Source of the DNA: a phage | Sequence record: PZ583740.1 | Strand: one strand, 5' to 3' | DNA: 27,851 bases | Shown: in pieces, positions 4,413-8,547 of the stretch | Position numbering within the stretch: the first letter of the stretch is position 1 | Layout: the number at the start of each line of letters is the position of its first letter | Position numbers and translations under genes: made by a program | Notes under the pieces: generated by a model | What the model was told of the DNA's origin: nothing | What the model saw: the letters and a program-made list of their open reading frames with translations, nothing else | Databases searched by the model: none

Positions 4413-5085
4413 AATTAATTGCGATTGTGGGTAAAAAACGCAGTGGTAAAGATACGACTGCTGATTATGTTATTAGTCAAAACGGAACAAAGTGGCAGCT
4501 TGCTGGTCCGATTAAAGAAGCGCTTTATAAAGCGTGGATTCGTCAAGACCTGCCACACAATTTGACCCTGGAAAATTTTGATGGACAAGGTTACGACCGT
4601 GAAAAAACCTTAATAATGAACAACACCGAAGCTTATATTCTTCTGGTTGATGCTCTTGAATGGTTGAAACAACAATACAATCTTGACCTTCCGAATCCAG
4701 ATATGGTTCGTAAAATCATTGAATTTCACACACTAAATAATGTTGAGCCCTGGACAGTTAGACGTTTCATGCAGACCCTTGGAACTGATATTGTTTGTAC
4801 AGAGTTCGACAGCATGTTTTGGATTAAAACTTTTGCATGCGACTATCTTGACAACCTCTATTCTGGATATAAATATTACGTTGTCCCAGATGTTCGTCAA
4901 AAGAATGAACTTGATTCGCTTCGGGCGATGGGTGCTACAATAATCTTTGTAGAACGCGATGAAGCAAATCATTCTACTGATACACACATTACGGAAGCTG
5001 GACTTCCACCACTAGCTAGTGACATTGTTATTAAAAACGATGGCACACTCGAAGAACTTTTTGATAAAATTAATAAGGTAATATA

Positions 5086-5086
<1 letters not shown>
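4409..5086 (+). CDS. 1: Deoxynucleoside monophosphate kinase gp1
   Basis: 225 aa with P-loop GKKRSGKDTTAD; MKLIAIVGKKRSGKDTTADYVIS...LAGPIKEAL matches T4 gp1. Confidence 0.85.
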
Positions 5087-5776
<690 letters not shown>

Positions 5777-5777
<1 letters not shown>

Positions 5778-5806
5778 TGTACAAATGAGTGTAGGTGCAG
5801 TATTAT
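5777..5806 (+). promoter_or_regulatory. Sigma70/T4-early-like promoter (GTGTAC, 18 nt spacer, TATTAT) overlapping a 7-bp-stem palindrome
   Basis: GTGTAC at 5777-5782, TATTAT at 5801-5806; inverted repeat GTGTAGG (5789-5795) / CCTACAC (5810-5816); GGAG RBS then ATG at 5838. Confidence 0.35.
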
Positions 5807-5837
5807 GTTCCTACACCAATGAACAAACGGAGTTAAT

Positions 5838-6170
5838 ATGAACATCAAAACTTACAACGAGTTTTTAGCCGAATCCGCCATCAATGAGACCAAATCAATT
5901 GATGATAGTGAAGGCTCTCTGAAATTTGGTTTAACCAAAAACGCAGATGGTGTTTTCTTTCAGATTGGTAATGAACGTTTTCAAACGTCCAAATATTCCA
6001 AAGCTGCAGTTGAAGCTGTCCTGAAATCTGGTGGCAAGTGGAAAGGCAAAGAAGGTACTAAAGAAATTGGTATCGCTGTTGACGGTGGTATGGCTTATTT
6101 TAAAATTGGCGATGAACAATTTATTATGTCTGCTCGCGGACGTAAAGAACTGGCAAAACTTTATAAATAA
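5838..6170 (+). CDS. Internal protein (IP)-like, capsid-targeted small protein A
   Basis: 110 aa; N-terminus MNIKTYNEFLAE-S resembles the T4 capsid-targeting sequence MKTYQEFIAE with an L-x-E prohead-protease site; GGAG RBS. Confidence 0.7.
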   Translation: MNIKTYNEFLAESAINETKSIDDSEGSLKFGLTKNADGVFFQIGNERFQTSKYSKAAVEAVLKSGGKWKGKEGTKEIGIAVDGGMAYFKIGDEQFIMSARGRKELAKLYK

Positions 6171-6178
6171 GGTTTCTT

Positions 6179-6451
6179 ATGAAAACTTTCAATGAATTTT
6201 TCAACGAGTCACAATTGAATGAAGAAGTAAAAATTAGTAAAGCAGTCAAATCTATGATTGACAATATCAATCACCTGTATAGCATTGACTTGACTGACCA
6301 TATAACAATTGGTAACAAACGCAACTTTTTCGCGTTTGACATTTCAGAACTTGACCAGAACCAAATTAATAACATTGAGCGTTTTGCCAATGACAAGGGT
6401 CTCCGCCATGAGACAGCTGGTTATAAAAAATATGCAATTTATCTTAAATAA
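6179..6451 (+). CDS. Internal protein (IP)-like, capsid-targeted small protein B
   Basis: 90 aa; N-terminus MKTFNEFFNE-S; tightly linked to ORF A via conserved junction AAATAAGGTTTCTTATGAAAAC. Confidence 0.65.
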   Translation: MKTFNEFFNESQLNEEVKISKAVKSMIDNINHLYSIDLTDHITIGNKRNFFAFDISELDQNQINNIERFANDKGLRHETAGYKKYAIYLK

Positions 6452-6459
6452 GGCTTCAA

Positions 6460-6702
6460 ATGAAAACTTATCAAACATTTATAACAGAATCTTCCCATAG
6501 TATGGAAGTTAAACTTGGTCAAGCCCTTGCTGAAGCAGAGCGCCTGTTTGCACGTATCAAAGAACTTGCCGATTCTGTAGATGCATCATCTTTTAAAGGC
6601 GACCAGGGTAAAGTTAAAGCTCTCCTTGCTCTTTGTTCAGACGCGGGTGAAATTGCTAAGAACGGCACCAAGATGAAAAAACGCCTAGAAGATTTAAAAT
6701 AA
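6460..6702 (+). CDS. Internal protein (IP)-like, capsid-targeted small protein C
   Basis: 80 aa; N-terminus MKTYQTFITE-S; junction AAATAAGGCTTCAAATGAAAAC. Confidence 0.65.
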   Translation: MKTYQTFITESSHSMEVKLGQALAEAERLFARIKELADSVDASSFKGDQGKVKALLALCSDAGEIAKNGTKMKKRLEDLK

Positions 6703-6732
6703 GTGTACATGATGGGATAACTGTAGTATGAT
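6703..6732 (+). promoter_or_regulatory. Sigma70/T4-early-like promoter (GTGTAC, 18 nt spacer, TATGAT) overlapping palindrome TGGGATAA/TTATCCCA
   Basis: GTGTAC 6703-6708, TATGAT 6727-6732; 8-bp inverted repeat 6713-6720 / 6732-6739. Confidence 0.35.
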
Positions 6733-6757
6733 TATCCCATCAACTACTGGAGACCAC

Positions 6758-7012
6758 ATGAAAACTTATCAAGAATTTATTACTGAATCTGCAAATGCAA
6801 AAGTTGAGTTTGCTTATGTTGGTTCGCCGCGTGGCAGTTTTTCCAATGAGGAATTCCGTCGTTCACTGGACAATTTCATGCAGTTAAGTGCTGAAGTATC
6901 GCATGATGGTCGTTATGACATCGTTACTATTAGCGGTTCTGAAGACCTTATCAAAAAGTGGTACAAGCAGAAAGATGTTGAGATGCGTTACTATCGTATC
7001 CCTAAAAAATAA
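6758..7012 (+). CDS. Internal protein (IP)-like, capsid-targeted small protein D
   Basis: Track ORF 6728..7012 starts at an upstream codon; ATG at 6758 has a GGAG RBS and gives MKTYQEFITE-S (84 aa). Confidence 0.65.
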   Translation: MKTYQEFITESANAKVEFAYVGSPRGSFSNEEFRRSLDNFMQLSAEVSHDGRYDIVTISGSEDLIKKWYKQKDVEMRYYRIPKK

Positions 7013-7041
7013 GTGTACTTTTAAATGGGATAACGTATAAT
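7013..7041 (+). promoter_or_regulatory. Sigma70/T4-early-like promoter (GTGTAC, 17 nt spacer, TATAAT) overlapping palindrome TGGGATAA/TTATCCCA
   Basis: GTGTAC 7013-7018, TATAAT 7036-7041; inverted repeat 7026-7033 / 7041-7048; about 80 percent identical to the unit at 6700-6760. Confidence 0.4.
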
Positions 7042-7070
7042 TATCCCATCAACTACTGAGGGCCAAAAAA

Positions 7071-7292
7071 ATGAAAACGTATCAAGAATTTATTAACGAA
7101 GCTAAAATGCATGACGAATTGCCGATTCAATCTAAAACTTTTGATGGTACACTGAAGGATTTTAAAAAGTTGCCAAATGATAAATTGGCAAAACTTACAG
7201 GTTCTGTATCTGAAACAGGTGGTAAGGTTACTTTCTCTGCCCGTGGTATTGTCAACCTTAAAAAACTTTTGAAAGCCGTTGGTGCTGAATAA
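7071..7292 (+). CDS. Internal protein (IP)-like, capsid-targeted small protein E
   Basis: 73 aa; N-terminus MKTYQEFINE-A; GAGGG RBS. Confidence 0.65.
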   Translation: MKTYQEFINEAKMHDELPIQSKTFDGTLKDFKKLPNDKLAKLTGSVSETGGKVTFSARGIVNLKKLLKAVGAE

Positions 7293-7350
7293 AACAGTTA
7301 CTGGTCTAGTATATCATAACCTAGACCTATCAAAAAGTGAGGAGAATAAA

Positions 7351-7536
7351 ATGAAACGTTGTGAATTAATTAGAAATGTTACTGCCTTTGTTGCTGTTAC
7401 CACTTTTGGTTTTAGCATGTTTGCTGGCTTTATGTTGAATATGCTTTCAACTTCTGAGAATATAATCTCTTTAGTAGTTGCATTTTTAATTGGTTCAATC
7501 TCTTTCGTTATGGATAAAATCTCTAAAGGTGAGTAA
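7351..7536 (+). CDS. Small predicted membrane protein (two hydrophobic helices), function unknown
   Basis: ATG at 7351 preceded by strong GAGGAG RBS; 61 aa with hydrophobic stretches [23 protein letters not shown] and [17 protein letters not shown]. Track ORF 7279..7536 starts at an upstream TTG. Confidence 0.5.
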
Positions 7537-7550
7537 AATGTATAAAGTGT

Positions 7551-8519
7551 ATGCGGATTATCAGAAAGATTCGCCTGCAAGGCTTCACCAGCGGTGAATG
7601 GGTAGCTCGCGAGAAGATTCATGGTACCAACTTTTCATTAATCATTGAACAAGACAATGTGACATGTGCGAAACGCACTGGACCTATCCTGCCTGCAGAA
7701 GATTTCTATGGTTATGAAATTGTATTAAAGAATTATGCTGATTCTATTAAATCTGTGCAGAAACTTTTGCAGGATATTAATTACCAGGCATACCAGATTT
7801 ATGGTGAGTTTGCCGGGGCAGGTATCCAGAAGAATGTGGATTACGGTGATAAAGATTTTTATGTATTTGATATCCGCGTTACTAAAGAAGATGGTTTTGA
7901 ATCCGTCCTGACTGACACCTTGATGGAAGCATTCTGTATTATCCATAAGTTTAAGGTTGCACCGCGCCTGGCTACAGGTAGTTTTGAAGAATTAATTAAG
8001 CTCCCTAATGACCTGGATTCTGTTGTCCCTGATTACAATTTTACAGTGGATAACGCGGGTTTGACTACAGCAAATACCACTGATTTTGTTGCAAAGGTGG
8101 AAGGTAAAGTATTCACTGCCGAAGGATTTGTATTAAAACCTGATGTTCCTGCATGGTTACCTAACGGCGAGCGTGTAGCGATTAAATGTAAGAACTCTAA
8201 ATTCAGTGAAAAGAAAAAGTCTGATAAGCCTATTAAGGCTGCAGTGGTTCTGAGCCAAAATGATATGGATTTACTGTGGAATTTCACTGATTATGTGACT
8301 GTTAACCGTATCAACAATGTTATCAGTAAAATTGGGGAAGTAACACCGAAGGATTTTGGAAAGGTAATGGGGTTAACAGTCCAAGATATTCTGGAAGAAG
8401 CGGGGCGCGAAGGTCTTGAATTGTCCCTGACGGAAAATCCTGTTGAAGTTAAAAAGCAACTTATTGTAAATGTAAGAGAAACATTAAGACATGTTTGGAT
8501 TGCATTAGTTAGTGAATAA
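7551..8519 (+). CDS. rnlB: RNA ligase 2 (Rnl2 / gp24.1)
   Basis: 322 aa with nucleotidyltransferase motif [20 protein letters not shown] and strong overall similarity to T4 Rnl2; true 5' end uncertain (ATG with good RBS at 7538 is in another frame). Confidence 0.85.
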
Positions 8520-8547
8520 AAATAAAGGGCCTTGCGGCCCTTTTTTA
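8520..8547. terminator. Bidirectional rho-independent terminator between rnlB and gene 24
   Basis: Hairpin GGGCC-TTGC-GGCCC (8527-8540) flanked by an A-run upstream and T6 downstream; lies between convergent stops. Confidence 0.7.

Follow-up and report, generated by a model that had tools for sequence, protein, structure and literature searches.

Promoter-early stem-loops (PeSLs), named by Arbiol et al. 2010 (PMC2839356) and Comeau et al. 2014 (PMC4122927), are found in RB49/phi1, PST/T4 and nt-1/KVP40 in the order stop codon, AT-rich stretch, -35, -10, stem-loop, Shine-Dalgarno sequence (SD) and ATG. In phi1/RB49 the stem-loop, as defined in PMC2839356, most commonly lies between -35 and -10 or overlaps -10; PMC4122927 extended PeSLs to T4/PST. 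The reporter assays (promoter, terminator/attenuator) and the inverse PCR for mini-circles concern phi1/RB49 elements only, and the sole terminator assay in that paper used a G/C-rich stem of phage phi1 (PMC2839356). According to the description given there, PeSL-like stem-loops, AT-rich and located on early promoters of T4, had been seen by Repoila et al. 1994 at the two internal-protein (IP) loci; Arbiol et al. class such IP-locus elements as analogues, not homologues, of PeSLs. Promoters inside a hairpin are also known from T4 e, soc, 49 and I-TevI (PMC3014915), where the structure likewise forms only in upstream-derived transcripts.

The window, that is, the whole stretch of phage DNA analysed (27,851 nt, record PZ583740.1), contains the locus studied at about 5,777-7,350 (Table 1). 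Sequence similarity and gene order identify it as an ipI-type internal-protein locus from a T-even phage, flanked by 57B (Acb1) and trna.4; the synteny 57A-57B-ip genes-trna.4 is that of VR26 and T4, and positions 5302-7564 are 98.5% identical to Gaprivervirus vB_EcoM_RZ. The 57B homologue is the first gene 5' of the locus, and the trna.4 homologue forms its downstream border. ORFs B-E match PHROGs of internal head or virion proteins. The capsid-targeting sequence (CTS) motif MKT(Y/F)(Q/N)EF opens ORFs A-E, in ORF A in the resembling form MNIKTYNEF and in ORFs D and E as MKTYQEFITES and MKTYQEFINEA, respectively. For ORF D, the earlier ATG at 6728 given in the ORF list was rejected because it lies inside the -10 hexamer, and the SD position fits the ATG at 6758. 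By these homologies, the genes between the elements are internal-protein cassettes, a point absent from the preliminary description of this DNA. ORFs A and B are only 8 nt apart, and the late promoter motif at the stop codon of ORF A is a predicted promoter that likely gives rise to late read-through transcripts across ORFs B-E and hairpins E2-E4.

Table 1. Genes and putative regulatory elements of the internal-protein locus (positions of the window).
Feature	Position	Strand	Basis or location	Parts
57B homologue (anti-CBASS Acb1)	5322..5777	+	Pfam Acb1, E=1.7e-59; synteny with VR26 and T4 57B	
E1, promoter-embedded stem-loop	5775..5837	+	Between 57B homologue and ORF A	Stop TAG 5775-5777; GTGTAC 5777-5782; -10 TATTAT 5801-5806, in loop; arms GTGTAGG 5789-5795 / CCTACAC 5810-5816; SD GGAG 5829-5832; ATG 5838
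ORF A, 110 aa	5838..6170	+	phrog_3966, E=6e-34	
T4-type late promoter motif TATAAATA (putative)	6162..6169	+	Motif scan; overlaps ORF A stop codon	
ORF B, internal head protein (ip9-like)	6179..6451	+	phrog_7673, E=2.5e-56; VR26 annotation	
ORF C, internal head protein (ip5-like)	6460..6702	+	phrog_3499, E=6.6e-41; VR26 annotation	
E2, promoter-embedded stem-loop	6700..6757	+	Between ORF C and ORF D	Stop TAA 6700-6702; GTGTAC 6703-6708; -10 TATGAT 6727-6732; arms (11 bp) TGATGGGATAA 6710-6720 / TTATCCCATCA 6732-6742; SD GGAG 6749-6752; ATG 6758
ORF D, internal virion protein	6758..7012	+	phrog_8111, E=1.9e-13; SD position	
E3, promoter-embedded stem-loop	7010..7070	+	Paralogous copy of E2; between ORF D and ORF E	Stop TAA 7010-7012; GTGTAC 7013-7018; -10 TATAAT 7036-7041; arms (9 bp) ATGGGATAA 7025-7033 / TTATCCCAT 7041-7049; SD GAGG 7058-7061; ATG 7071
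ORF E, internal virion protein	7071..7292	+	phrog_8765, E=1.3e-20	
E4, stem-loop with decayed promoter	7290..7350	+	Between ORF E and trna.4 homologue	Degenerate -35 AGTTAC 7296-7301 only, -10 absent at correct spacing; arms GGTCTAG 7303-7309 / CTAGACC 7321-7327; SD GAGGAG 7339-7344; RegB-type site GGAGAATAAAA 7341-7351
trna.4 homologue, 61-aa membrane protein	7351..7536	+	phrog_1692, E=1.8e-33; annotations	

All four palindromes noticed in the preliminary description were confirmed at their positions, as was the layout recurring before ORFs A, D and E (stop codon, GTGTAC, 17-18 nt, TAT(T/G/A)AT, ribosome-binding site). In E1-E3, the TAG or TAA lies within 0-1 nt of GTGTAC, with which the TAG of the 57B homologue shares one base, and the stop codons have A/T-rich flanks (TTTAAAGTAG, TTTAAAATAA and AAAAAATAA). 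The -10 is enclosed by perfect stems of 7-11 bp, whose two arms fill the spacer and the -10-to-+1 stretch with the hexamer in the loop, and a GGAG or GAGG SD is found 6-9 nt 5' of each ATG. The layout is of the T-even early-promoter type: E1 (TGTACA-17-TATTAT) and E2 (TGTACA-17-TATGAT) score 9/12 in the consensus scan, E3 reads GTGTAC-17-TATAAT, and the upstream regions of T4 ipI and trna.4 share the design. The sigma-70 consensus scan itself returned 18 sites against 14.1 +/- 3.4 expected and is uninformative alone. Within about 60 nt, each element would combine five parts: the stop codon of the gene before it, an inverted repeat, a T4-type early promoter (GT[G/T]TAC, 17-18 nt, TAnnnT), an SD of the GGAG type and the first codons of the following ip gene, which encode the conserved CTS. 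Like PeSLs, the elements are intergenic, with a stem-loop overlapping the promoter and an SD plus start codon at the 3' end; sigma-70-type boxes about 17 nt apart are predicted in E1-E3 and are missing from E4. The segment overlapping the SD of E4 fits the RegB consensus GGAGRAYARAA (PMC3014915).

The palindromes correspond to the described PeSL-like cassettes and therefore add a further example of a known element type, one already in the literature that the preliminary description did not recognise. The order of parts is that of the PeSLs of RB49/phi1, PST/T4 and nt-1/KVP40 (PMC2839356, PMC4122927), and these too lie at indel or replacement boundaries in hyperplastic regions. The RB49/phi1 PeSLs differ in having G/C-rich stems (GGGG...CCCC) and near-consensus TTGACA/TATAAT promoters, whereas the stems of E1-E4 are short and AT-rich; according to a figure legend in PMC4122927, the PST stem-loops are located just 5' of the promoter, whereas the stems in the window straddle the -10. 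Closest are the elements of Repoila et al. as PMC2839356 describes them, which occupy the same locus type (57B-trna.4), pair T4-type early promoters with stem-loops that are AT-rich and vary in size, adjoin variable ip genes and, like those described here, were proposed to confine ip shuffling to the locus. T4's own ipI element (GTTTAC-N18-TACTAT with stem GATGAGGTA/TACCTCATC) and trna.4 element (stem ATAGGGT/ACCCTAT) align with E1-E4; the lineage of the window differs in its -35-like box, GTGTAC instead of GTTTAC, and has its own stems.

Folding of the four regions as RNA gave hairpins of -7.8 to -14.5 kcal/mol (E1, -12.9; E2, -14.5; E3, -9.1; E4, -7.8). When the longest perfect inverted repeat of each spacer was compared with those of 5000 dinucleotide shuffles, p values of 0.055, 0.0004, 0.003 and 0.047 were obtained for E1 to E4, respectively; z-scores for folding of the whole spacers were modest (-2.3, -2.3, -1.1 and -0.9). 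Perfect repeats of at least 7 bp occurred in 3.75% of 58-nt tiles over the whole window and in 4/4 long spacers of the locus. As E2 and E3 are homologous copies, the window provides three independent stems, not four. Rfam covariance models gave no match at E up to 1 on either strand of positions 5000-8000.

A survey of the regions 5' of CTS-bearing and trna.4 genes (84 loci) showed that promoters of T4 and about 45 relatives carry the embedded-hairpin design before ipI, ipII, ipIII and trna.4, with stems of 14 bp and 8 bp at T4 ipII and ipIII, respectively. E1 is kept in VR20, VR26 and RZ, in the last with a stem of 9 bp (GTGTAGGTG/CACCTACAC). Since the position of the 5' arm and the loop length (6-18 nt) vary between families, there is no single column structure, and a partner-swap test was used instead of column-wise covariation. 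Among 26 non-redundant IP/trna.4 promoters, a perfect stem of at least 7 bp straddling the -10 was present in 38% of cognate and 5.4% of swapped pairs; for 34 T4 early-promoter-like elements, the corresponding values were 26% and 3.1%. The excess over partner-swap controls in the two data sets is about 8-fold, up to 40-fold. About 60% of the IP/trna.4 promoters have no such stem, and the hairpin is therefore common, not obligatory.

The preliminary description had proposed that the position of the hairpin is kept while its sequence differs, and the related T-even loci bear this out: pairing is conserved, 33 distinct perfect stems of at least 7 bp occupy the same position in T4-type phages, and compensatory changes are present. 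Examples are AGGGCTAT/ATAGCCCT versus AGGGTTAT/ATAACCCT and ATAGGGT/ACCCTAT versus ATGGGGT/ACCTCAT; C-G is replaced by T-A between L022-type and L044-type stems, A-T by G-C between the T4 trna.4 type and L020, and G-C by T-A between the L007-type trna.4 element and E4. Upstream of trna.4 in T4 and L028, the 5' arm is shifted within the spacer with complementarity retained, and in L015 a hybrid stem (GTGTAGGGATA/TATCCCTACAC) joins the arms of E1 and E2. Where a lone mismatch stands between pairs, it is G.T or T.G in six cases and A.C in one, with a further G.T in E2 of RZ, a bias that is based on about eight related observations. Embedded hairpins and canonical upstream terminators occurred together in 0/62 cases against 12/175 (Fisher p=0.04, uncorrected for relatedness). 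The G.T bias, the retention of the E4 stem and the mutual exclusion of hairpin and terminator are hints of selection on the sense RNA.

Positions 6467, 6804 and 7326 are the breakpoints of homology to VR26, VR20 and L004; the first two are located in CTS codons and the third inside E4. The same element is followed by different ip genes in different phages, as at the gene-replacement boundaries in hyperplastic regions that characterise PeSLs; the counterpart of E2, for example, precedes different ip genes in VR20 and VR26. Comparison of these genomes shows that promoter, hairpin, SD and CTS codons together form a conserved cassette, which serves as the homology patch for ip swaps between phages. 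E4 resembles both the ip-type and the trna.4-type elements of L007, and it was considered that it may be an L007-type ip promoter moved 3' of ORF E via mini-circle integration.

From promoter geometry only, transcription is predicted to start about 7 nt past the -10, which places the start within the 3' arm or shortly beyond it, a point likewise absent from the preliminary description; RNA from the embedded promoter would therefore lack the 5' arm and could not form the hairpin. Only RNA that started at early or late promoters further upstream would contain the full hairpin, which in such RNA most likely would mark the cistron boundary; it may weakly attenuate transcription or make it pause, and may also protect the 3' end left when RegB or RNase E cuts 12-17 nt downstream, at the GGAG or in the A-rich leader. 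The PeSL papers favour an attenuator or RNA-stability role, which is plausible for these AT-rich stems. The arms would occupy the spacer and the -10-to-+1 stretch, two segments that sigma-70 does not recognise by sequence, and the stem would therefore be free to vary if both arms change together. Literature searches gave no usable T4 start-site or Term-seq maps and no usable earlier remarks on T4 early promoters having dyad symmetry. We infer that E1-E4, in the T-even internal-protein locus, are probably PeSL-like elements that combine a boundary hairpin of read-through RNA with a homology patch for ip swaps. A wider reading, offered tentatively and perhaps too broad, is that the embedded hairpin might be a general read-through-RNA signal of T-even phages, carried by about a quarter of T4 early promoters. 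On this reading it would be under promoter-independent selection, as the E4 stem kept after decay of the promoter suggests, might define stable 3' ends of each small cistron together with RegB or RNase E cleavage at the nearby GGAG, and would have become an SD-sequestering switch in L029 and L010.

The inverted repeat could act as DNA instead, its cruciform or hairpin targeting cassette recombination, with endonuclease VII or another recombination protein as candidate user, or exposing the -10 for promoter opening. The mosaic breakpoints do fall at the elements, the majority of stems are perfect Watson-Crick palindromes, as DNA structure needs, and Arbiol et al. (PMC2839356) mapped one mini-circle crossover within the loop of a stem-loop and speculated on a stem-binding recombination protein. 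However, breakpoints 6467 and 6804, being in CTS codons, are outside the stems, so that plain homology suffices for the exchange, and DNA hairpin energies of just -3.8 to -8.7 kcal/mol are poor for cruciform extrusion. The far greater tolerance of imperfect arms for G.T than for A.C is the expectation for sense RNA, not DNA, and the E4 stem, retained without a usable promoter, speaks against promoter opening. A DNA-level role is therefore considered unlikely.

It is decidedly unlikely that the palindromes are functionless, arising from promoter recombination and template-switch correction and tolerated in unconstrained promoter positions. T4 corrects quasi-palindromes by template switching, which could maintain arm complementarity without selection. 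The arms are indeed located exactly where the promoter accepts any sequence, and both the hybrid stem in L015 and the share of related promoters without a strong stem agree with such an origin. Against it are the 8- to 40-fold excess over partner-swapped controls, the more than 30 unrelated stems at one position, the 5' arm that moved within the trna.4 spacer with its complementarity kept, and the survival of the E4 stem after promoter decay.

A translational discriminator of the T4 gene e/soc/I-TevI type, in which read-through RNA hides the ribosome-binding site and only RNA from the embedded promoter is translated, fits the geometry of a promoter inside a hairpin. In L029 and L010, a helix of 13 to 17 bp pairs the promoter spacer with the trna.4 GGAG and leader and is lost in the embedded-promoter transcript, by the mechanism reviewed in PMC3014915; sequestration of the SD as in gene e is confined to these relatives. 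T4 e, soc, 49 and I-TevI have late promoters and a 3' arm that covers the ribosome-binding site, whereas the window elements are of early type with the SD outside the hairpin, 12-17 nt 3' of every 3' arm; when 110-nt segments were folded, it stayed unpaired or joined no more than a 3-bp mini-helix. Sequestration of the gene e type was rejected for the window elements on this ground, and since IP proteins must be made late, via late-transcript read-through, such a role is very improbable here.

The suggestion that a dimeric DNA-binding protein regulates the early promoters with the palindromes as its operators can practically be dismissed: a dyad centred on the -10 is a classical operator position, but complementarity is conserved and not sequence, loops range from 6 to 18 nt, and the three unrelated stems of the locus and at least 33 among relatives offer no common recognition sequence, so that more than 30 stems could not be read by one protein, and the E4 stem has outlasted its promoter. 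Thus, of the preliminary interpretation as a whole, the conservation of structure and the early-promoter layout stood and the operator did not. Rho-independent terminators resemble E1-E4 as intergenic stem-loops right after a stop codon; however, the AT-rich stems of E1-E4 have no U-tract, the sequences 3' of them (CAATGAAC, ACTACTGG, CAACTACT and TATCAAAA) contain no T-run and the terminator scan flagged none, and these are therefore not canonical intrinsic terminators. A true bidirectional terminator is found elsewhere in the window, at 8524-8543. RNase III sites were likewise rejected, as stems this short are unsuited to that enzyme.

For T4 and the IP loci, the present analysis adds the partner-swap enrichment, the compensatory changes, the G.U preference and the hairpin/terminator exclusion, and notes that the arms coincide exactly with the sequence-free segments of the promoter. 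The sharing of the same 40 nt by a promoter and an RNA structure is already part of the PeSL literature. The same literature also holds what the elements help to explain, namely how injected anti-defence ip proteins are swapped between T4-type phages as ready-to-express cassettes.

Four intergenic inverted-repeat elements, E1–E4, were located by reading positions 5400–7800 and by an inverted-repeat search and an exact motif listing (table). The preliminary description had placed palindromes in a recurring promoter-like layout upstream of ORFs A, D and E and a fourth, GGTCTAG/CTAGACC, upstream of a small membrane ORF; all of the palindromes and the layout were confirmed, and the arms of E2 proved longer than given there. 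The observation is correct and non-random. A perfect repeat of at least 7 bp occurred in just 3.75% of 58-nt tiles over the whole window. E2 and E3 represent one element in two copies, so that the window holds three independent stems. In E4 the perfect stem is kept and the promoter boxes have decayed, the motif listing returning only a -35-like box, without a -10 at the correct spacing.

Inverted-repeat elements of the window, with the energy of the minimal RNA hairpin and the probability of the longest perfect repeat in 5000 dinucleotide shuffles per spacer
Element	Gap	-35-like box	-10-like box	5' arm	3' arm	Other features	Energy (kcal/mol)	p
E1	57B homologue / ORF A	GTGTAC 5777-5782	TATTAT 5801-5806 (in loop)	GTGTAGG 5789-5795	CCTACAC 5810-5816	TAG stop 5775-5777; GGAG 5829-5832; ATG 5838	-12.9	0.055
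E2	ORF C / ORF D	GTGTAC 6703-6708	TATGAT 6727-6732	6710-6720 (11 bp)	6732-6742 (11 bp)	GGAG 6749-6752	-14.5	0.0004
E3	ORF D / ORF E	GTGTAC 7013-7018	TATAAT 7036-7041	7025-7033 (9 bp)	7041-7049 (9 bp)		-9.1	0.003
E4	ORF E / small membrane ORF	AGTTAC		GGTCTAG 7303-7309	CTAGACC 7321-7327		-7.8	0.047

The region 5302–7564 shares 98.5% identity with Escherichia phage vB_EcoM_RZ (RZ; Gaprivervirus) and is also near DK-13, VR26, VR20 and SP18; the annotated records of VR26 and T4 have the order gp1, 57A, 57B, internal-protein (IP) genes, trna.4. The 57B homologue is an Acb1 anti-CBASS protein, the PHROG matches of ORFs B–E are internal head/virion proteins, and the membrane ORF downstream of E4 is trna.4. 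All five of ORFs A–E begin with MKT(Y/F)(Q/N)EF (in ORF A after Met-Asn-Ile), which is the capsid-targeting sequence (CTS) of T4 internal proteins. The true start of ORF D is at 6758, the upstream ATG at 6728 falling within the -10 box. At 6162–6169, 10 nt ahead of ORF B, a late-promoter motif, TATAAATA, overlaps the ORF A stop codon, and late transcripts would therefore traverse E2, E3 and E4; further copies lie at 4868–4875 (within gene 1) and 1031–1038. Within trna.4 (7440–7466), a MotA-box-like ATGCTT suitably spaced from TATAAT may serve the genes normally downstream as a middle promoter.

The same design was found in T4 and its relatives, surveyed through 28 loci collected via the 57B protein, 53 via a CTS-coding DNA pattern, and the T4 early regions. 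In the T4 IP locus with ipI, the layout GTTTAC-N18-TACTAT is present twice, upstream of ipI (stem GATGAGGTA/TACCTCATC) and of trna.4 (ATAGGGT/ACCCTAT), and the other T4 IP locus has a 14-bp stem before ipII and an 8-bp stem before ipIII. The 102 distinct regions that precede CTS genes, and the 26 that precede trna.4, show many unrelated stems at one position of their promoter-bearing elements (AGGTCTATAG/CTATAGACCT, TGATAGAA/TTCTATCA, AGGGCTAT/ATAGCCCT and GATAGGGTA/TACCCTATC, for example), with 51 distinct perfect stems of at least 6 bp, 33 of these of at least 7 bp. In every case examined the 5' arm lies in the promoter spacer and the 3' arm between the -10 and a conserved ATCAA just downstream, the -10 itself being within the loop or at the border of loop and 3' arm. 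The arms thus occupy parts of the promoter left unread by sigma-70, which explains how the stem sequence can vary at a fixed position. A small hairpin, CCACA-AGGA-TGTGG, recurs within the spacers of several early promoters (T4 2434, 50949 and 167062, and locus L019), its 3' arm being the TGTGG that precedes the -10. Perfect repeats of 7–14 bp straddling the -10 are common at early-promoter motifs of T4 outside the IP loci (AF158101; L084, L085, L030, L086), by position near motB, gene 41/dmd, mobD.2, 30.7 and cd.2/cd.3.

The suggestion that structure is under selection at this position was supported by compensatory changes in related loci and by a partner-swap test. Compensatory arm changes distinguish AGGGCTAT/ATAGCCCT from AGGGTTAT/ATAACCCT, ATAGGGT/ACCCTAT from ATGGGGT/ACCTCAT, and, upstream of trna.4, GGGCT.../...AGCCC of locus L007 from GGTCT.../...AGACC of E4. 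Upstream of trna.4, the 5' arm adjoins the -10 in locus L028 and lies seven bases farther 5' in T4, with complementarity in both. Since registers differ among families, each spacer was joined to the downstream segment of a different promoter as a control. Perfect stems straddling the -10 were present in 38.5% of 26 non-redundant IP/trna.4 promoters versus 5.4% after swapping (at least 7 bp), and in 34.6% versus 2.8% (at least 8 bp); for 34 T4 early-promoter-like elements the values were 26% versus 3.1% and 14.7% versus 0.36%, respectively. With an excess in both sets, the embedded stem-loop is a real feature that extends beyond the IP loci and is under selection or, at the least, active maintenance.

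Arbiol et al. (2010) defined promoter-early stem-loops (PeSLs) in phi1/RB49: behind a stop codon and an AT-rich stretch come a sigma-70-like promoter and a stem-loop, which usually falls over the -10 or in the -35/-10 interval, and then a Shine-Dalgarno (SD) sequence and ATG. One element was shown to act as a promoter and as a terminator/attenuator, and neighbouring PeSLs recombined to give mini-circles (PMC2839356). According to these authors, Repoila et al. had earlier observed PeSL-like sequences at the T-even IP loci; they class these weaker, AT-rich, variable-size stem-loops on T4 early promoters as analogues, not homologues. Comeau et al. (2014) extend PeSLs to T4/PST and repeat the link to IP loci (PMC4122927). 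At the sequence level, the window elements show every PeSL feature examined. For this type of locus the feature has been described before, in phages almost the same as the present one.

E1–E4 lack a T-run after the stem and none was flagged by a terminator scan of the window; they are therefore not canonical intrinsic terminators. Where rnlB and gene 24 converge, that scan found a perfect G/C-rich hairpin, AAAGGGCC TTGC GGCCCTTT (8524–8543), which has T-runs on both strands and looks like an intrinsic terminator acting in both directions. A gene e-type SD-sequestering hairpin and the operator of the preliminary description both failed their tests for the window elements, which matched no Rfam family.

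Homology with VR26, VR20 and one other relative continues across E2 into ORF D, where it ends after 45 nt, at 6804; it also ends at 6467, where ORF C encodes the CTS, and restarts at 7326 inside E4. E2-type elements stand upstream of different ip genes in different phages. These breakpoints and the reuse of E2 are the cassette shuffling already proposed for such loci. The stem of a promoter element in locus L015, GTGTAGGGATA/TATCCCTACAC, resembles a hybrid of the E1 (GTGTAGG) and E2 (GGGATA) arms and suggests recombination between different elements. At 7564/7565, the left side is colinear with RZ 82153->79891 and ends at trna.3 codon 9, and the right side corresponds to RZ 118722->117586, where rnlB without about 25 codons is followed by minus-strand gene 24. 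This junction is absent from all 50,697 phage records searched, and it shows no microhomology beyond 1–2 nt. The order 118722|79891, read forward, is the pattern left by a tandem duplication or a circle (about 38.8 kb), or else by a misassembly or a chimera.

Promoter geometry places the predicted start site about 7 nt past the -10, in or directly after the 3' arm, so that RNA from the embedded promoter would be unable to form the hairpin, which would arise solely in transcripts begun at early or late promoters farther upstream. Mismatches flanked by pairs comprise six G.T and one A.C, and the RZ copy of E2 has one further G.T. An embedded hairpin and a canonical upstream terminator never occurred together (0/62 versus 12/175, p=0.04, in 237 unique elements with kinship ignored). 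From the G.T bias, including the RZ copy, the stem retention in E4 and this exclusion, we lean towards a role in sense RNA. Three of the four downstream genes have GGAG in their SD, and the ribosome-binding region of trna.4, GGAGAATAAAA (7341–7351), matches in full the RegB cleavage consensus GGAGRAYARAA (PMC3014915). The best reading is a boundary hairpin that would attenuate read-through and, once RegB or RNase E cuts 12–17 nt downstream, shield the new 3' end of the preceding cistron. A gene e-like switch based on an early promoter is seen in two relatives (L029, 5789–5880; L010, 5669–5760), where a 13–17 bp helix pairs the -35/spacer region (TTTACATCTCCATTTG) with the trna.4 leader and SD (CAAATGGAGATGTAAA) and is predicted to be absent from the embedded-promoter transcript. 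Read-through RNA would there mask the ribosome-binding site and embedded-promoter RNA would not; the read-through-only logic would thus be able to become a translational switch.
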